Of a DNA stretch of 64,000 bases, positions 2,754 through 24,230 are shown in pieces (position 1 is the stretch's first letter; every line of letters begins with the position of its first letter). The notes beneath the pieces were generated by a model. It saw nothing but the letters and a program-made list of their open reading frames with translations. It was not told where the DNA came from and searched no databases. The translations under genes and the position numbers were made by a program. The stretch lies in assembly GCF_054482525.1 (NCBI RefSeq), contig NZ_CM137006.1; one strand, given 5' to 3'.

Positions 2754-4853
2754 ATGAACCGAGAGCAAGCCCAACAACTGCTGCAGACTGCTTTGGCTAA
2801 CCCTGCTGCTGAATTTCGTGATGGTCAGTGGGAAGCCATTGATGCATTGGTTAATCGTCGTCAGAAACTACTGGTTGTACAGCGTACCGGCTGGGGTAAG
2901 AGCTCGGTTTATTTTATTAGTACTAAAATCTTCCGTGACCGCGAGATGGGGCCTACGATTATTGTATCGCCACTGCTTGCATTAATGCGTAACCAGATTG
3001 ATTCAGCGCAGCGTTTGGGAATAGTTGCCGAAACAATGAATTCGGCTAATAGGGAGGATTGGCAGGCTGTAACTCAACGAATTCTCAATAACCAAATAGA
3101 CTGTTTGCTCATTTCCCCAGAGCGGCTAGCAAATGATACCTTTATTGAGACGGTCCTTCAGCCCATTGCCGATCGAATCGCCCTAATGGTAATTGACGAA
3201 GCACACTGTATTTCAGATTGGGGTCATGATTTTCGTCCTGATTATCGCCGTATCGTAAATATCCTTCGTCAATTGCCCGCCAACACCCCAGTACTAGGTA
3301 CGACTGCAACTGCCAATAACCGAGTTGTTGACGATATCCAAGCCCAGCTTGGGGATATACAAATCCACCGAGGTCCTCTTACTCGCGAAAGCCTCGCTCT
3401 GCATACAATGTCTTTACCCGATCAGGCATCTCGTTTAGCTTGGCTCGCCCAAGTTATTCCGATGCTACATGGAACAGGCATTATTTACGCATTAACAGTT
3501 CGTGATGCCGAGCAGGTGGCAGAATGGTTGAGCATGCACGGTATAGTTGCCATGGCATACCACGGTAGCATCGAGGCTGAAGGTTTTGAGAACAGCAATG
3601 CTTACCGTCAGTACTTAGAAGAATTGTTACTTAACAACCAGCTTAAGGTTTTAGTAGCAACGACCGCGTTGGGTATGGGTTATGATAAACCTGATTTAAG
3701 TTTTGTAATCCATTACCAAGCTCCGAGTTCAATTGTTGCATACTACCAGCAGGTGGGTCGGGCTGGGCGCGGTATTGCTCATGCAACAGGTGTACTGATG
3801 TCGGGGATAGAAGATAACGACATCCATGATTTTTTCCGTGATTCTGCATTTCCATCGGAGGATCAAGTTAACGATATTCTTCGAGTGTTGGAAAATAATG
3901 ATGGTCTATCACTCCGCAACATCGAGGAAAAAACTAACCTACGCCACGGCCAGATTGAGAAAGTACTTAAGTTACTGAGTGTAGAAAATCCAGCCCCCAT
4001 CATTAAAAATGAAAATCGTTGGGTTAGGACCACAGTTCGCTATCAAATGGATCATGCCCGAATTGCTCATTTGACAGGACAACGTATTCAGGAATGGGAA
4101 GAGGTTCAAGCGTACCTTACCGACACTGGATGCAAAATGGCATTTCTACGTCGTTCTCTGGACGATCTCGACCCAACTCCATGTGGTAAATGCTCGTCCT
4201 GTATTGGTCAACCAATTATAAATCAAATCATTGACCCTGCTTTGGTACATCGTGCAGGGACTTTCCTAAAACATGCAGAAATGCCGATTACTCCAAAAGC
4301 TCAGGTAGCAGCTAATGCTTTTTTGCAATATGGCTTCAGCGGCAATTTGCCACAGCAGATTAGAGCACAAGAAGGTCGAGTGTTGTCTCGCTGGGGAGAT
4401 GCTGGTTGGGGACGGTTAGTAGCCGATAATAAACGTGCAGATCACTTTGATGATGAGCTAGTGGTTGCTATGGCCGAGATGATTCAGCAGCGTTGGCAAC
4501 CGAATCCAGCGCCACAATGGGTATGCTGTGTACCTTCACGCAATCATGTACAATTAGTCCCTGATTTCGCTCGCCGCTTGGCGGCATGTTTGAGGTTGCC
4601 TTTTTTCAATGCCATCAGCAAGGTTAGAGATAACCAACCTCAAAAGGGGCAACAAAACCGTTTCCATCAATGCCGCAATCTGGACGGTGCTTTTGAGATA
4701 AATCAACCTCTACCTAACACACCGGTTCTACTTGTAGATGACATTGTAGATTCAGGCTGGACGTTAACTGTCATCGCAGCACTCCTACAACGCGCAGGTA
4801 GTGGTAAAGTATACCCTGTTGCACTTGCTTCATCTTCGGTAAAAGACTCATGA
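2754..4853 (+). CDS. RecQ-family helicase fused to a C-terminal phosphoribosyltransferase-like (ComF-like) domain; ShosT-like candidate
   Basis: 699 aa ORF. N-terminal RecQ motifs (FRDGQWEAI, TGWGKSSVY Walker A, DEAHCISDWGHDFRPDY); C-terminus has a PRTase-type motif (VLLVDDIVDSGWT). RBS aaggag upstream. Confidence 0.75.
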   Translation: MNREQAQQLLQTALANPAAEFRDGQWEAIDALVNRRQKLLVVQRTGWGKSSVYFISTKIFRDREMGPTIIVSPLLALMRNQIDSAQRLGIVAETMNSANREDWQAVTQRILNNQIDCLLISPERLANDTFIETVLQPIADRIALMVIDEAHCISDWGHDFRPDYRRIVNILRQLPANTPVLGTTATANNRVVDDIQAQLGDIQIHRGPLTRESLALHTMSLPDQASRLAWLAQVIPMLHGTGIIYALTVRDAEQVAEWLSMHGIVAMAYHGSIEAEGFENSNAYRQYLEELLLNNQLKVLVATTALGMGYDKPDLSFVIHYQAPSSIVAYYQQVGRAGRGIAHATGVLMSGIEDNDIHDFFRDSAFPSEDQVNDILRVLENNDGLSLRNIEEKTNLRHGQIEKVLKLLSVENPAPIIKNENRWVRTTVRYQMDHARIAHLTGQRIQEWEEVQAYLTDTGCKMAFLRRSLDDLDPTPCGKCSSCIGQPIINQIIDPALVHRAGTFLKHAEMPITPKAQVAANAFLQYGFSGNLPQQIRAQEGRVLSRWGDAGWGRLVADNKRADHFDDELVVAMAEMIQQRWQPNPAPQWVCCVPSRNHVQLVPDFARRLAACLRLPFFNAISKVRDNQPQKGQQNRFHQCRNLDGAFEINQPLPNTPVLLVDDIVDSGWTLTVIAALLQRAGSGKVYPVALASSSVKDS

Positions 4854-6175
4854 ATGTATCTAACTTATTGTCAAAAACAGCCCAGGCGACCTTACTTCTG
4901 ACTAGTTATTTTTCTAAAGCAACTAGCGAAAACGCCAAACCACTTTCCAACGCCGAATGGGGACGTTTTGCGCTATGGTTGAAAGAAAAAGCAGTTACGC
5001 CAGCTGACTTGTTGGACTCTGATCCTCAAACCTTACTGAATGGCTGGTACGACTCCCGTATCAGTACGGATCGGATCATTGAGTTGATGAATCGAGGACA
5101 TAGCCTCGCTTTGGCTATGGAGAAATGGCAACGGGCAGGCTTGTGGGTAGTGACACGTTCTGATCCAGAATATCCATGGAGATTAAAACATCGGCTTAAA
5201 ACAGACTCTCCCCCTGTTTTATTTGGCTGTGGCAATAAAGCCTTATTAAATAGAGGGGGATTGGCTGTCATTGGTTCTCGAAATGCCAATGCATCAGACC
5301 TTACTTTTACTGATCACATCGGCGTTAAAGCTGCGGACGAAAATATAGCTGTTGTATCTGGTGCTGCACGTGGAGTAGACGAAACAGCCATGTTAGGTGC
5401 AATGAGGCAAGGTGGAGTTGTAATCGGGATTTTGGCAGATAGCCTGTTAAAAGCTGCGACTAGTGCCAAATGGCGCAAGGGGCTTATGAATGACCATGTT
5501 GTGCTAATATCCCCTTTTTACCCTGAGGCTGGTTTCTATGCGGGAAATGCCATGGCTCGCAATAAATATATCTATTGCTTGTCGGATAGTGCATTGGTTA
5601 TTCATTCTGGTCGAAAAGGTGGAACAATTAGTGGGGCAGAGGAAAATCTTAAGAAAGGATGGGTGCCACTATGGGTCAATCCAACAACCGATCTAGATTC
5701 AGCTAATGCTGACTTAGTGAGCAAAGGGGGACATTGGTTGCCAAGTGATAGTAATGGCCTATCCATCGAGAATTTGCTTAAAAATAATGACAGATCAAAA
5801 ATGCAGTTAAAAGCAGAGCCCCAAGATCTTTTTTCAGAATTGTCGCATCCAGAATTAATTATTGGATCTGCAGAGAAATCGTCAACTCAAGCTCTCGAAA
5901 AAGATTGGACTGCTACTATTAATGAAGAAACTCCCAACCTAATAACTACGGAAAAAAAATTAGAGGAAAAAGAGTTAGATGTAAATCCTATAGACTTTTA
6001 TCTGCTATTCAGGACAGAATTACAGCGATTGGCCGAACATCCAATTACAGTAGATAGGTTGACAGAAGTCACTGGGTTGAATAAATCGCAAGTGCTTGAT
6101 TGGTTGAAACGTGCTGAACAAGATGGTTTGGTAAAAAAACTAAACCGTCCTACAAGATATCAATTAAATGAGTAG
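4850..6175 (+). CDS. DprA/Smf-like Rossmann-fold protein; ShosA-like candidate
   Basis: 441 aa ORF whose ATG overlaps the upstream stop (ATGA). DprA-type motifs: LAVIGSRNAN, VVSGAARGVDETAMLGA, ARNKYIYCLSDSALVIHSG. Confidence 0.7.
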   Translation: MNVSNLLSKTAQATLLLTSYFSKATSENAKPLSNAEWGRFALWLKEKAVTPADLLDSDPQTLLNGWYDSRISTDRIIELMNRGHSLALAMEKWQRAGLWVVTRSDPEYPWRLKHRLKTDSPPVLFGCGNKALLNRGGLAVIGSRNANASDLTFTDHIGVKAADENIAVVSGAARGVDETAMLGAMRQGGVVIGILADSLLKAATSAKWRKGLMNDHVVLISPFYPEAGFYAGNAMARNKYIYCLSDSALVIHSGRKGGTISGAEENLKKGWVPLWVNPTTDLDSANADLVSKGGHWLPSDSNGLSIENLLKNNDRSKMQLKAEPQDLFSELSHPELIIGSAEKSSTQALEKDWTATINEETPNLITTEKKLEEKELDVNPIDFYLLFRTELQRLAEHPITVDRLTEVTGLNKSQVLDWLKRAEQDGLVKKLNRPTRYQLNE

Positions 6176-6271
6176 TAACAGGCTTTAATGAAGCAACTAT
6201 AACCGGTTTGGCCTTAATGATTTTTAGTTAAGCTTGGGCATATAAAAGTTTAGAATTGATATAATGGTATT

Positions 6272-6302
6272 CAATTACATTAGTGTTGAGCTAATGTAAT
6301 TG
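6272..6302. terminator. hairpin between convergent genes (12-bp stem caattacattag / ctaatgtaattg, 7-nt loop)
   Basis: Inverted repeat read directly in the gap between the DprA-like gene end (6175) and the RelA/SpoT-like gene end (6357). Confidence 0.45.
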
Positions 6303-6356: not shown

Positions 6357-7346
6357 TTATGTCTTTCTTTCAAGTGCAACTCCTAGATCCGCTGCCATTT
6401 TTTGGATTAGCCTCCAATCTAGCGGCCATTCTTTTTCTAAAGTAGATCTCCGTCTTTTGATTAACCAGTAAACGAAAATAACAACGCTTTGTTCAAAGAA
6501 ACTACTCCCTTCTTTGCCATCCTGAATTAGTAGTTCGAGCTCAGGAGTCTCTTCTATAAATTGATGTAATCTTTCTATCGTATCGGGTTTGATCACTTCT
6601 TTAAATGTATCTAGAATTAATAAAGTCGATTTTTGATTGTTTGGTTTATTCTTTGTTAAAGCTATGTAGATATTATCTAAAGTTCGCTGAATTCCTGCGT
6701 AACCATCAGATGCTGCGTTAATTGCTTTCGATACTGAACAGAAAAAATCATCCGTAGTTTCTATTAACGCCATGCTTTTTGCTACAGTTCTATGTATATC
6801 TGGTTCAACTATAGTTTTTGCTTTATATATGGCATCATGAGTTAACTCGGCATAGGCATGTTGTAATAAAGATCTAACCTGTATCTCACATGGAATGCCT
6901 TGTTCAATGATAACTCCATTATAATCAAAGGATTCTTTTGCAGTTACTATAAAATGTACGGATTGATACGTGAAAATTAATGGTGTATTTAATCTTTCTT
7001 CTTCGTAGTGTCTTGATGTCTTATAATGCCATTTATTACTACTTTTTATTATTTCACATATTTCATCTATATCTGAAGTAAGTAAAACGACAAACCTGAT
7101 GCCAACTTTATCTTCAATCTCTTGGTAGGGGTTTTTGTATGATTTTTCTTTTCGATGAAAAGCTTTATCGATTAGAGATGTCTTTTCTTTTATTCTCGGT
7201 GTCGCAGGTTGCTTGAGAAAGCTATTGAGGTCCCGCTCTTTATTTTCTGAGAGTTCTTTGCAAATATTTGAGACGACAAAATCTCCCCATGCTTTATACA
7301 TGGGTAGTTCTTTTTCCCAAAGTTGCGAAAACTCTAATTCATTCAT
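6357..7346 (-). CDS. RelA/SpoT-domain nucleotidyltransferase (alarmone-synthetase-like, stand-alone)
   Basis: 329 aa ORF. Synthetase-domain motifs GIRFVVLL, YQSVHFIV, EIQVRSLLQHAYAELTHD; no hydrolase or TGS/ACT region seen. Start ATG 8 nt after upstream stop. Confidence 0.65.
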   Translation of the reverse strand: MNELEFSQLWEKELPMYKAWGDFVVSNICKELSENKERDLNSFLKQPATPRIKEKTSLIDKAFHRKEKSYKNPYQEIEDKVGIRFVVLLTSDIDEICEIIKSSNKWHYKTSRHYEEERLNTPLIFTYQSVHFIVTAKESFDYNGVIIEQGIPCEIQVRSLLQHAYAELTHDAIYKAKTIVEPDIHRTVAKSMALIETTDDFFCSVSKAINAASDGYAGIQRTLDNIYIALTKNKPNNQKSTLLILDTFKEVIKPDTIERLHQFIEETPELELLIQDGKEGSSFFEQSVVIFVYWLIKRRRSTLEKEWPLDWRLIQKMAADLGVALERKT

Positions 7347-7354
7347 TAATTAGC

Positions 7355-8446
7355 TCATTCCTGAAGGGTTATCTTGTCCTTGATGAGGATTGTTGTCCAC
7401 TCAGCAGGTTTACCATCTTTATCGAGTTCACCTATAGTAGATTCAATTACAATATGGCTTTTAAAAACTTCCGCAGGGGCTGTGATTTTTATATTTTTAC
7501 TAAAGTTAAGCTTTCTTGTTTTTAATTTGCTTTCAATATGCTCGTTGTCTCTTGTGAAAGAGGTTTGTGGTATACCAGATTCATGAGCATACTCAAGATA
7601 AAGATCCTTAATACTATCATCAAAAAATCTTTCAGCATAATCTTTAGCTGAAATTACATCCGATTTTTCATGTTTAAGATATGTAACTAATGCATTTTTA
7701 AGCACATTTTTCTTTTCCTCGCTGACATCCAATTCATTAAGAAATTCACTCGTTTTTTCATAGAAATTCTTTGTTGTGCGGGCACTTGTTTCTGGGTAAC
7801 CGCAACCTAAAAAATTTTGATAAAAATATTGTGCTGCAGCTTTACCATCCGACTTACTGATTTGATAGTCAGAAATCATCACATCCCAAGATTTATTAAG
7901 ATCAGTATTATCAAGAGAATTGGTTGATTGGAAAAAACCGGCAGTTTTATAAAGTTTTGTGGATGGTGTAAGTAATATTTCTTCAACGAATTTTAATGAT
8001 ATTTGGCCCGTTTTATCGTCGATTACTTTTTCATATGCACTATAAATATCAGCCTTGATAATTCCAATGAATTTTCTTTTATTTACACCATAGTCGCCAG
8101 AAAAGATTACTACAATTCCGCCTGGAATTGCTCGTCTTGTCTGCGCATCTGCCAGTTTATTAGCTATTGTGTAAGTCTCATCAATATAATCCTCTCCCTC
8201 TTTATCAATTAAAGTTGTAGCAATATAAGGAACATAATCTTTTCCATGCTCCTTTATTTGCATTTTTACGGCTTTAGAACCATCACCTAAAGCGTCGATT
8301 ACTCGTGATTTAAAACCTTGCAAGGCATCAGCATCAAATTTTATAAATGAAGAACCTCTTGTTGGTTCTATTTTGTTTCCTTCTTCGTCGCGCTGATGAA
8401 TTTGGTGGATAATTATTTTGTTAATATTCATTTTGCTGATATTCAT
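7355..8446 (-). CDS. NdpA/YejK-like (NA37 family) nucleoid-associated protein homologue
   Basis: 363 aa ORF. N-terminus IIIHQIHQRDEEG resembles the E. coli YejK IALHQLIKRDEQ region as I recall it. AT-rich. 17-nt gap to upstream gene. Confidence 0.55.
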   Translation of the reverse strand: MNISKMNINKIIIHQIHQRDEEGNKIEPTRGSSFIKFDADALQGFKSRVIDALGDGSKAVKMQIKEHGKDYVPYIATTLIDKEGEDYIDETYTIANKLADAQTRRAIPGGIVVIFSGDYGVNKRKFIGIIKADIYSAYEKVIDDKTGQISLKFVEEILLTPSTKLYKTAGFFQSTNSLDNTDLNKSWDVMISDYQISKSDGKAAAQYFYQNFLGCGYPETSARTTKNFYEKTSEFLNELDVSEEKKNVLKNALVTYLKHEKSDVISAKDYAERFFDDSIKDLYLEYAHESGIPQTSFTRDNEHIESKLKTRKLNFSKNIKITAPAEVFKSHIVIESTIGELDKDGKPAEWTTILIKDKITLQE

Positions 8447-8463: not shown

Positions 8464-8931
8464 TTATTGATTATCTGATTTTATATTTTTGCTTTCAATA
8501 TATTCTTTGTGAATATTATTCCATTCTTGACTGTCTTTTTCCCAAATAGATTTATATTCATCAAAAAGACTATCAATATCTGACTGGGTTACATCTTCTT
8601 TGGATTTTAAGTAATTAACTTTGTTTCTAAGTTGATACATGGCTAGCAAAGTAGCTTTTTGCCTAAACCATAATTTTTGATAATCAAATCTTGCAGTCCA
8701 CCCACTAACTAGAGTAAGACAGGCACTCACAATAAGAGCAGAATTTTTCTGTATTTTTTCATATCCAGATAAATCGAAGGCTAATATCAGTGTAGTAATA
8801 GTGCTCAAAAATATAGTCATGAAAAAAAATATTTTTAATTTTTTTTTATTCCATTTCGCCTTGCACTTTATTATGTTGATACTTTTATGGATTTCATCCA
8901 GTAAAAACTGTTGAGAAGATGTTATAGACAA
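8464..8931 (-). CDS. small membrane protein with two predicted transmembrane helices (SLATT-like topology, unverified)
   Basis: 155 aa ORF; hydrophobic stretches IFFFMTIFLSTITTLILAF and SALIVSACLTLVSGWTA. First codon is TTG; an internal ATG (MTIFL...) is an alternative start. Confidence 0.45.
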   Translation of the reverse strand: MSITSSQQFLLDEIHKSINIIKCKAKWNKKKLKIFFFMTIFLSTITTLILAFDLSGYEKIQKNSALIVSACLTLVSGWTARFDYQKLWFRQKATLLAMYQLRNKVNYLKSKEDVTQSDIDSLFDEYKSIWEKDSQEWNNIHKEYIESKNIKSDNQ

Positions 8932-8971
8932 TTATCTCACCTGAAATATTTTCACATTGGTAATAAAACTA

Positions 8972-9011
8972 CTCGCACTAACTGGTATGAGCTCATACCA
9001 GTTAGTGCGAG
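8972..9011. promoter_or_regulatory. perfect 40-bp palindrome (ctcgcactaactggtatgag / ctcataccagttagtgcgag) between integrase 3' end and the AT-rich operon
   Basis: Read directly; the two 20-nt arms are exact reverse complements centred on gagctc. A U-rich tract follows on the minus strand, so it may terminate the integrase transcript. Confidence 0.5.
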
Positions 9012-9175
9012 CATGGCTACCGCATTTGATGTGCTCAACAGCTTTGTATTGAGATACTTTTAACAATGTTGTATTTAACTAGCTGATACTATTAATTATA
9101 AATGAGAATCAGAGCAAAAACGAGCGGTAGGTAAGATATAGACCGAAAGCATATAAAACCATAAATATCAAATCA

Positions 9176-10378
9176 TTACACTACCGCATGTAAGATTCTA
9201 CGTACAGAGTGTAGATCAATCAAATAGTCTGAATACCACTGCATCATCTCTCTTCGCCCCTCCAGATATTGCGCATGGTTGTACGTCCCACGAATCGCAT
9301 TCTTATCGACATGCGCAAGCTGGGTTTCAATCCATGCCGTGTTGAACCCTTCCTCGTGCAAAATCGTACTCATCGTGTGACGGAAACTATGCCCCGTTAC
9401 CTTCCCCGTATACCCAATCCGTTTGAATACCTGATTAATACTCGCTTCACTCATCGTTTTACGTGGATCATTGCGCCCTGGGAACACCAAAGGATATTGC
9501 CCGGACATTACTTTGAGCTGTTGTACGATTTCTAGCGCTTGGGTAGAGAGGGGTACAAGATGGGGCCGTTTCATCTTCATACGCTCTGCAGGTATTTCCC
9601 ACACCGCTTTCTCAAGATCAAACTCACTCCAGAAAGCACCTCGAAGCTCGCCAGTACGAACTCCCGTAAGGATAAGCAGACGAGCGGCAAGAACAACTAA
9701 CGGGCTTCCTGTATAACCTGCGAGAGCTTTAAAGAAGTCTGGTAACTCCTCTACTGACAGGAAGGGATAATGCTTCGATTCATGCCCTGACATCGCGCTG
9801 GTTAGGTCCGCTGCAGGATTGTATTCCGCGCGACCTGTAACGATGGCATAACGAAAGACTTCGCTGCAGCGCTGGCGAACCTTCTTGGCCTTCTCTGTCG
9901 CGCCACGGCTTTCGATTCGACGCAGCACATTAAGCAGAACCAGCGGTTTGATTTCATTCACTGGCAGTTGGCCGATATAGGGGAAAATATCTTTATTGAA
10001 GGCTTCGATAATATCGGAGGCATAGCCTTCTGACCACCGGCTCACCTTAGTACCGTGCCACTCAAGCGCCACAGACTGGAACGTGTTGTTGAGCTGCACA
10101 TCGCGAACCAGCTTTTCTTCTTTCTTTGCGAAAGACGGGTCGATACCCTCGGCCAGCTTTTTCTTGGCTTCATCACGCAGAGCCCTCGCTTGTGCAAGGG
10201 AAACAGCCGGATAGACCCCAAAAGCCATACGCTTCTCTTTTCCATTGAAGCGATATTTCATTCGCCAGTATCGAGAACCAGAGGGAACGACTTCAAGATA
10301 CAAGCCAGCACCATCTGCCAGCTTATAGGCTTTCTCTTTGGGTTTAGCAGCGTCTACCTGTCGCGCATTAAGCTTCAT
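9176..10378 (-). CDS. int: P4-type tyrosine integrase (site-specific recombinase)
   Basis: ORF 9176..10417; likely start is the ATG at 10378 (MKLNARQVDAAKPKEKAYKLADGAGLYLEV...) with GGAG 9 nt upstream. Sits directly beside the tRNA-Thr 3' end. Confidence 0.85.
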   Translation of the reverse strand: MKLNARQVDAAKPKEKAYKLADGAGLYLEVVPSGSRYWRMKYRFNGKEKRMAFGVYPAVSLAQARALRDEAKKKLAEGIDPSFAKKEEKLVRDVQLNNTFQSVALEWHGTKVSRWSEGYASDIIEAFNKDIFPYIGQLPVNEIKPLVLLNVLRRIESRGATEKAKKVRQRCSEVFRYAIVTGRAEYNPAADLTSAMSGHESKHYPFLSVEELPDFFKALAGYTGSPLVVLAARLLILTGVRTGELRGAFWSEFDLEKAVWEIPAERMKMKRPHLVPLSTQALEIVQQLKVMSGQYPLVFPGRNDPRKTMSEASINQVFKRIGYTGKVTGHSFRHTMSTILHEEGFNTAWIETQLAHVDKNAIRGTYNHAQYLEGRREMMQWYSDYLIDLHSVRRILHAVV

Positions 10379-10541
10379 TGGGGGCATCTCCCTGGACCGA
10401 ACACAGAATGCCCCCACTTATGCCCCCAACTGCGACTTGATTTCGGTTGAGTCCAGTTGATAACAGGAGATAAGATACGGGCCAGAAACCGCAGTATACG
10501 GGCTTTTAGTTGATTTCGGTAGACTTGGGAAGAGTTTGAAA

Positions 10542-10617
10542 TGGTGCCGATAATAGGAGTCGAACCTACGACCTTCGCATTACGAATGCGCTGCTCTACC
10601 AACTGAGCTATATCGGC
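10542..10617 (-). tRNA. thrW: tRNA-Thr (anticodon CGU), thrW-like
   Basis: Reverse complement reads GCCGATATAGCTCAGTTGGTAGAGCAGCGCATTCGTAATGCGAAGGTCGTAGGTTCGACTCCTATTATCGGCACCA, 76 nt with CCA end and anticodon loop TTCGTAA. Confidence 0.9.
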
Positions 10618-24142: not shown

Positions 24143-24230
24143 CCCCTCGCCCCTTTGGGGAGAGGGTTAGGGTGAGGGGAAAGTGCGCGCTGAGTCCCTC
24201 ACCCCGGCCCTCTCCCCAAAGGGGCGAGGG
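24143..24230. repeat. inverted pair of a ~35-bp GC-rich palindromic unit (REP/BoxC-like intergenic repeat)
   Basis: 24143..24178 is the reverse complement of 24196..24230 apart from 2-3 nt; a related unit recurs at 26879..26916. Confidence 0.6.

Follow-up and report, generated by a model that had tools for sequence, protein, structure and literature searches.

Type I PANGU systems, known so far from a single 2026 preprint, consist of an NA37 protein paired with a GRel toxSAS (Pag1A, a nucleoid-associated protein (NAP), and Pag1B); they act in abortive infection by sensing phage-induced genome degradation, and some cluster-1 operons carry an extra SLATT gene (bioRxiv 10.64898/2026.04.06.716658). 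The systems tested in that work were expressed from foreign promoters, and the preprint makes no mention of a palindrome, a hairpin or a terminator (10.64898/2026.04.06.716658). Here we describe a perfect palindrome that is located just upstream of such an operon. As heterologous PANGU constructs defend without their native leader, this element would be regulatory rather than mechanistic. Its core sequence was not found in the literature searched, and the palindrome is a previously undescribed cis-element of the SLATT-containing PANGU cassette.

Several known elements have a related architecture. Like intrinsic terminators and attenuators, the palindrome forms a stand-alone hairpin, oriented in the same direction as the upstream gene, in which a GC-rich stem with a 4-nt loop is followed by a U-rich tail; and like the terminator before colicin lysis genes, which limits the expression of a lethal product, it is set directly before the gene for a toxic membrane protein. 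It differs from typical intrinsic terminators in its much longer stem of 18–20 bp, in a symmetry that is perfect through the loop, in the invariance of its inner 22 bp across genera and in the absence of the U-tract from four variants, and from leader attenuators in that neither an alternative pairing nor a leader peptide was found. Hairpins processed by RNase III in 5' UTRs (the rnc, pnp and lambda N leaders, T7 early transcripts) similarly place a duplex of about two turns upstream of a ribosome binding site, but the known sites usually contain internal loops and are not zero-spacer, and some stems of the present family reach only 15–16 bp. Operators of the BrxR/CapW and CapH types (BREX/CBASS) are, as here, conserved two-fold-symmetric sequences just upstream of a defence operon; unlike them, the palindrome has no linked regulator gene, lies downstream of the putative promoter and extends its arms by variable complementary sequence that an operator does not need. 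Finally, the ColE1 inverted repeat and pT181 IR-II are also perfect palindromes of 30–50 bp with a zero or short spacer, AT-rich flanks and a conserved apex adjoined by a conserved block. In contrast to pT181 IR-II, no Rep or nicking protein accompanies our element, and a pT181-type origin function is excluded by the context.

The palindrome was found in a window of 64,000 nucleotides (the whole stretch of DNA analysed), between a P4-like integrase gene and a three-gene operon (Table 1). As in type I PANGU, NA37 and RelA/SpoT genes follow downstream of it, and the optional SLATT gene is included. Pfam searches assigned the operon proteins to SLATT_4, NA37 (1.9e-17) and RelA_SpoT (7.2e-16); judged from these domains, the operon is a SLATT-containing type I PANGU defence operon, with defence predicted for this copy. 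Its AT-richness, already pointed out in the original prediction, was borne out by a GC content of 29–35%, against about 50% for int. Over 23,200 bp the window is 99.996% identical, with one mismatch, to E. coli SCU-102, where the counterpart is an island at tRNA-Thr(CGT), and the cassette with the palindrome was present in one of 5426 complete E. coli genomes. Beyond the operon, a RecQ-family helicase gene (~2754-4853, plus strand) overlaps a DprA-like gene (4850-6175, plus strand) whose product matches the PADLOC PsyrA model (E=7e-170). This match points to a PsyrTA-type pair arranged tail-to-tail with the PANGU operon, and hence to an island with two adjoining defence modules.

Table 1. Coordinates of the features in the window, with the outer arms of related palindromes.
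Feature	Coordinates	Strand	Remarks
RelA/SpoT-domain small alarmone synthetase, Pag1B/GRel-like	6357..7346	-	
NA37 nucleoid-associated protein, Pag1A-like	7355..8446	-	
SLATT 2TM effector gene	8464..8931	-	TTG start, same in all lineages
Small hairpin UAUUUC-AGGU-GAGAUA	8933..8948	-	sequesters Shine-Dalgarno AGGUGA 8942..8937
U-rich tail TAGTTTTATTACC	8959..8971	-	directly 3' of stem; window's clade only
Zero-spacer perfect palindrome	8972..9011	-	18–20 bp stem, 4-nt loop AGCU
Palindrome arm CTCGCACTAACTGGTATGAG	8972-8991		exact reverse complement of CTCATACCAGTTAGTGCGAG 8992-9011
3' arm outer part, operon sense TAGTGCGAG	8972..8980	-	covarying partner of 9003-9011
Invariant 22-bp core ACTGGTATGAGCTCATACCAGT	8981..9002	.	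mean pairwise identity 0.95
5' arm outer part, operon sense CTCGCACTA	9003..9011	-	lineage-variable, complementary to 8972-8980
One-sided conserved block TGCGGTAGCC	9015..9024	-	3 nt 5' of palindrome
Promoter-like TCGTTT-N17-TATAAT	9095..9123	-	-35 9123..9118, -10 9100..9095
P4-like tyrosine integrase	9176..10417	-	co-directional with operon; last ~45–60 nt belong to cassette
tRNA-Thr(CGT), island integration site	10542..10617	-	
L004 outer arms			5' GCGCCG, 3' CGGCGC
L008 outer arms			5' TTGCTTGCAGTA, 3' TACTGCAAGCAA
L009 outer arms			5' TTGCTTACAGTA, 3' TACTGTAAGCAA
L010 outer arms			5' CCTCCCCCATGCAA, 3' TTGCATGGGGGAGG
L012 outer arms			5' ATGG, 3' CCAT
L026 outer arms			5' CATGT, 3' ACATG
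L014 outer arms			5' ACACACCA, 3' TGGTGTGT

The geometry given in the original prediction (position, stem length and a U-rich tract on the minus strand) was correct throughout: the two arms are exact reverse complements without a mismatch, and the spacer between them is zero. Measured from the integrase stop (9176), the palindrome starts 164 bp downstream, and it ends 40 bp upstream of the SLATT TTG start (8931), in agreement with the distance of about 40 bp to the operon first estimated. An arm match of this kind was obtained in none of 100 dinucleotide-preserving shuffles of the window, and among the inverted repeats of 16 nt or more in the 64 kb, the palindrome is the only fully complementary one. 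The surrounding DNA has about 30% GC, whereas the stem itself is GC-rich, with 9 G-C among the 20 pairs counted by a consensus scan. Folding as RNA on both strands, one of the checks proposed at the outset, yielded the stem of 18–20 bp with its 4-nt loop on either strand, at z = -7.4 (minus) and -6.5 (plus) in a 141-nt context. The isolated 40-mer folds with -31.2 kcal/mol as RNA and with -20.8 and -20.9 kcal/mol for the two strands as single-stranded DNA. The palindrome is not an assembly artefact, as it recurs in the complete genome of E. coli SCU-102 and in an independent metagenome contig.

The window contains no second copy, and the element is single-copy per genome. A repeated palindrome of the REP/BIME type was rejected on the basis of this single copy in the window and of its presence in only one of the 5426 E. 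coli genomes. A different GC-rich inverted repeat, with 35-nt arms that are 91% complementary and lie 17 nt apart (CCCTCGCCCCTTTGGGGAGAGGGTTAGGGTGAGGG ...), is located at 24144-24230 and resembles an enterobacterial intergenic repeat element. A coding role was likewise discarded, because the open reading frames across the region (8911-9063, plus; 8932-9066, minus) are not conserved, with stops in all frames elsewhere. Palindrome lengths moreover differ between lineages by non-multiples of three.

Relatives were retrieved through SLATT homologues of 72–97% identity, on contigs from Klebsiella, Yersinia, Enterobacter, Citrobacter, Pectobacterium and other Enterobacteriaceae. Absence of the palindrome from otherwise identical islands had been named as the finding that would speak against a role, and the opposite was seen: of 11 distinct homologous cassettes, 10 kept a zero-spacer palindrome centred on GAGCTC at the same place, -80..-40 relative to the SLATT start. 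The palindrome was identical on one metagenome contig, and a second such contig, 98.7% identical overall, carried two uncompensated changes in one arm. A 77%-identical relative with an intact-looking operon (L031) retained only a 16-bp remnant at the palindrome position, and in L024 the palindrome is degenerate although the operon looks intact. No palindrome was present in the distant NA37-RelA/SpoT pairs L020-L023 (30–52% identical) or in L030, a 50.1%-identical plasmid pair with a SLATT-like gene, and no plasmid copies of the element were found. One further Logan contig (L025, positions 1-20) begins inside the palindrome (GGTATGAGCTCATACCAGT...), probably at an assembly break caused by the inverted repeat.

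Conservation is unevenly distributed along the element. Within the inner 22 bp, ACTGGTAnGAGCTCnTACCAGT, conservation is about 95%; among deep lineages the mean pairwise identity is 0.95 for this core against 0.41 for the outer arms, and the block TGCGGTAGCC reaches 0.96–0.98, compared to 0.46 for the rest of the leader (46–55% for the leader adjoining core and block) and 0.49–0.56 for third-codon positions of NA37 between the same lineages. The spacing between block and core is fixed at 22 nt, or 23 in L014. A 20-nt arm was absent from 100,044 species-representative genomes, and the invariant core makes a better search pattern than the arm; the core was not found elsewhere in the 5426 E. coli genomes, a scan that degenerate copies would escape. 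In IMG/VR one arm had no match, and the core matched only the cassette itself. A phage-derived site was rejected, given the lack of an arm match in IMG/VR and of an NA37 relative in phage records.

The outer 4–14 bp of each arm behave in another way, as their sequence and length vary across lineages with complementarity retained (Table 1), giving stems of 15–25 bp in the family. On a centre-anchored alignment, changes on both sides affected 12 of 23 pairs, compared to 6.3±1.6 in shuffles, of which none of 500 reached 12; paired cells amounted to 80%, against 29–38% when the partners were slid by 1–3 columns. Even close relatives show this behaviour: a single, exactly compensated pair separates L008 from L009, and three pairs are changed on both sides between the window and L004 (Klebsiella), whose genes are 99% identical. 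All six of these window/L004 stem changes are AT->GC transitions. The palindrome of L003 (9936-9975) has two of the three left-arm changes of L004 (3921-3960) without their right-arm partners, and is, on this comparison, a natural intermediate of compensatory evolution. As to which strand is transcribed, a sense-strand G.U is accepted at pair 4 in the diverged lineages L012 and L026, whose stems measure 15–16 bp; in a test of wobbles versus mismatches, L003 gave one wobble and one mismatch whichever strand was read, and L019 favoured the antisense strand. Thus, the core and block conserved in sequence and the outer stem conserved in pairing constitute two separate signals: as read from these alignments, purifying selection acts on apex and one-sided flank at the sequence level, and pairing is maintained in the stem base.

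In the leader, a strict consensus scan found no sigma-70 promoter shared across loci, but a regular-expression search recovered TCG(A/T)TT-N17-TATA(A/G)T in 12 of 12 loci with an exact spacing of 17 nt and a variable spacer sequence, and this motif is likely the leader promoter that the strict scan missed. If so, transcription is predicted to start near 9088, and the hairpin would occupy positions +78..+117 of a leader of about 157 nt, beginning 70–80 nt into it in every lineage. With a promoter-like motif upstream, the hairpin is probably transcribed. RNAalifold recovered this long hairpin together with a small conserved one that sequesters the Shine-Dalgarno sequence, and the one-sided A-U<->G.U changes of the latter across lineages support its pairing in the sense RNA. 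Two copies of the 9-mer ATGCGGTAG (operon sense) are present, at 9181-9189 in the int end and at 9017-9025 abutting the palindrome, and an inverted CTACCGC is found at 9124-9130, just 5' of the putative -35; of these sites, only the palindrome-adjacent copy is kept in all lineages.

With this arrangement, the reading that we tentatively prefer, at somewhat below an even chance, is that of a transcribed stem-loop, shared by the int 3' UTR and the operon leader, which terminates or attenuates transcription into the toxic operon. The stem-loop would be transcribed in the operon and int sense, and stem plus U-rich tract would make an intrinsic terminator or attenuator in the window. It would halt int read-through and most transcripts from the leader promoter before the SLATT gene, so that the defence operon would be expressed at a low basal level only. 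The weak -35, the sequestered Shine-Dalgarno and the TTG start all fit a low-expression reading. Terminator-like anatomy is plain in the window's clade: the consensus scan called the minus-strand hairpin terminator-like, with the tail GTTTTATTAC; the same anatomy recurs in a Yersinia relative; and by eye no other hairpin was seen between the int stop and the operon. Termination itself, like the promoter assignment and the transcription of the hairpin, is what we infer from this anatomy.

The U-tract is present in the window and in L004, L008, L009, L019 and L024. These six also form the clade with a cognate-type int directly upstream; four of the six int genes are intact, and the other two are frameshifted or truncated. 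The five relatives with such an int (64–100% identical to that of the window) all keep the U-tract, and four of the five keep perfect arms of 17–23 bp. The tract is absent from L010, L012, L014 and L026 although the hairpin is kept; yet the longest perfect arms of all, 25 bp, are those of L010. The suggestion that the palindrome may terminate the int transcript is plausible for the window, with its GC-rich stem, 4-nt loop and U-rich tail; the four hairpin-bearing variants without the U-tract imply that termination is not the whole conserved function. Similarly, a terminator needs no fixed stem sequence, and the 95% identity of the core therefore indicates that termination is not the sole conserved role. 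A strong terminator between the sole conserved promoter-like motif and the operon would also be awkward unless read-through is regulated. As to such regulation, pairing of the arms with the leader or with downstream sequence, as an antiterminator or other alternative, gave energies within the range of shuffles and was inconsistent between lineages, no conserved leader peptide was found (an upstream open reading frame through the hairpin is not conserved), and a search of Rfam by E-value returned only spurious microRNA-hairpin matches far below threshold. A riboswitch or a switching, regulated attenuator was rejected on these three grounds, that is, the lack of a significant alternative pairing, of a leader peptide and of an Rfam family. 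In any case, the invariant apical 22 bp and the block TGCGGTAGCC suggest a specific recognising factor, and some factor probably reads both.

One class of such factors would act on the RNA. An uninterrupted duplex of about 20 bp is a classical RNase III substrate, and the 18–20 bp of the window come close to this length; the stem may serve as a site of RNase III cleavage, as a 5'-protective stem or as a site for an RNA-binding protein; in the last version the single-stranded UGCGGUAGCC and the conserved apical stem-loop would be bound together, setting mRNA half-life or translation. The persistence of the hairpin without a U-tract in four distinct variants favours an element of this kind, as do the covariation, which proves pairing, the predicted location inside the leader and the one-sided block, which provides a polarity like that of motifs composed of a single-stranded box and a hairpin. 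On the other hand, it would be unusual for a fully paired 9-bp RNA stem to be read by its sequence, no Rfam family matches, and at 15–16 bp, including a G.U, the stems of L012 and L026 are short as RNase III substrates. Taken together, we regard a role in RNA processing, stability or protein binding as unlikely, though deserving of attention.

The same conserved core might instead be read in DNA, either as the operator of a dimeric protein encoded outside the cassette or as a cruciform, extruded in negatively supercoiled AT-rich DNA, that blocks or modulates transcription, as the inner 22 bp are conserved in sequence and palindromic through the centre GAGCTC. For the operator version, the GGTAG-containing block TGCGGTAGCC would lie two helical turns from the core; read directly, its CGGTAG resembles the half-site TGGTA(T/G) at a fixed distance of 22–23 bp. 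However, Pfam assigns a sequence-specific DNA-binding domain to none of the three operon proteins; NA37 is an unlikely reader, given that the studied homologue binds DNA without sequence preference; and the adjoining integrases are too different to be a common one. The site lies at about +78..+117 of the sole conserved promoter-like motif rather than over it, and no consistent promoter over or after the palindrome was found in the scanned loci. Furthermore, the absence of the core elsewhere in the 5426 E. coli genomes and in IMG/VR argues against a common regulon motif, and a double-stranded operator leaves the complementary outer arms of variable length unexplained. A LexA box was rejected because CTG-N14-CAG is wrongly spaced for one, and the similar-looking sites of GntR/FadR-type and LacI-type regulators and of SlmA do not fit in spacing. 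For the cruciform version, the zero spacer, arms of 15–25 bp and AT-rich flanks are features that Lilley and colleagues reportedly associated with cruciform extrusion; with about -21 kcal/mol per strand, the hairpins formed by the DNA are stable, and the symmetry is perfect even beside a decaying operon (L009). All in all, a DNA-level element appears to us an improbable explanation, on a par with the RNA one.

More doubtful than either is a combination of these ideas with the presumed biology of the system, in which the palindrome would be a sensor-type site of a genome-integrity defence. In its cruciform form, the palindrome would be extruded under normal negative supercoiling and block expression, and would be reabsorbed once the chromosome is nicked or fragmented by phage nucleases, which is the signal that PANGU answers. 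Alternatively, the apex and TGCGGTAGCC would dock a protein that couples the operon to infection.

A further question was what the palindrome travels with. The integrases next to it are only 33–64% identical across cassettes, int and leader are separated by an extra open reading frame in one variant, and no int is annotated in another; on these comparisons, the palindrome belongs to the downstream operon cassette and not to a particular integrase. Homology spans the whole int gene in the five variants with a cognate-type int, and none to the window-type int was detected in L010. In L012 (3440-3760), L014 (3589-3701) and L031 (6-170), the window-type int is reduced to a remnant of its 3' end, and other E. 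coli thrW integrases are about 90% identical to the window int only down to ~9219-9234. The unit thus consists of the int 3' end, leader, hairpin and operon, and has apparently spread by recombination within int genes.

This organisation bears on the proposal, also part of the original prediction, that the palindrome is a recombination site. A DNA transaction site of some kind (a secondary integrase site of 8-6-8 core type, an oriT- or rolling-circle-like hairpin, or a boundary for swapping cargo) could be imagined, as ACTGGTAT-GAGCTC-ATACCAGT formally has the arms and 6-bp spacer of a tyrosine-recombinase core, on the plus strand a conserved block lies 3 nt beyond the hairpin, an arrangement shared with some origins, and L003 has a left arm resembling that of L004 and a right arm matching the window. 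Nevertheless, homology between cassettes continues through the palindrome on both sides, with breakpoints inside the int 3' end. In addition, the integrases are no more than 33–64% identical and reduced to a 3' remnant in L012 and L031, no relaxase or Rep/HUH gene accompanies the element, its conserved part is the apex and not the stem base near the flank, and there is a single copy per genome. The proposal was thus not supported: a tyrosine-recombinase core or att site, or a module boundary, was rejected because the integrases have diverged and homology crosses the site, and we consider a transaction site of any kind extremely unlikely.

It is also conceivable that the palindrome has no current function, being an old int terminator or a chance palindrome that is symmetrised by template switching from arm to arm and hitch-hikes with the cassette. 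Compensated turnover is indeed fast, as between the window and L004 with L003 as an uncompensated intermediate; despite intact-looking operons, L031 keeps no more than 16 bp of the palindrome and L024 a degenerate version; and the palindrome is perfect beside the decayed operon of L009. This operon (Enterobacter, 4485-6300) has 26 indels relative to L008 and fragmented reading frames, and next to it the int gene, perfect arms of 23 bp and the U-tract are intact. But symmetrising does not stop a core from drifting, and the core and TGCGGTAGCC are 95–98% identical where the adjoining leader is at 46–55%. The outer arms are, moreover, enriched in GC although the DNA around them is AT-rich, and the element keeps a fixed position with respect to both the start codon and the promoter-like motif. 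We thus judge a functionless relic to be very unlikely.

Among the non-coding features of the SLATT-containing enterobacterial version of PANGU, the palindrome is the most conserved, and within its single stem, sequence conservation and pairing covariation can be separated. It offers a first handle on the native control of PANGU operons, and it sits where a membrane-damaging effector and an alarmone-synthesising toxin would need to be held down. If the terminator or attenuator reading is true, it would explain why the operon lies directly downstream of int and co-directional with it; and if a protein reads the invariant core, the element would provide a handle on a new regulator of this defence system.
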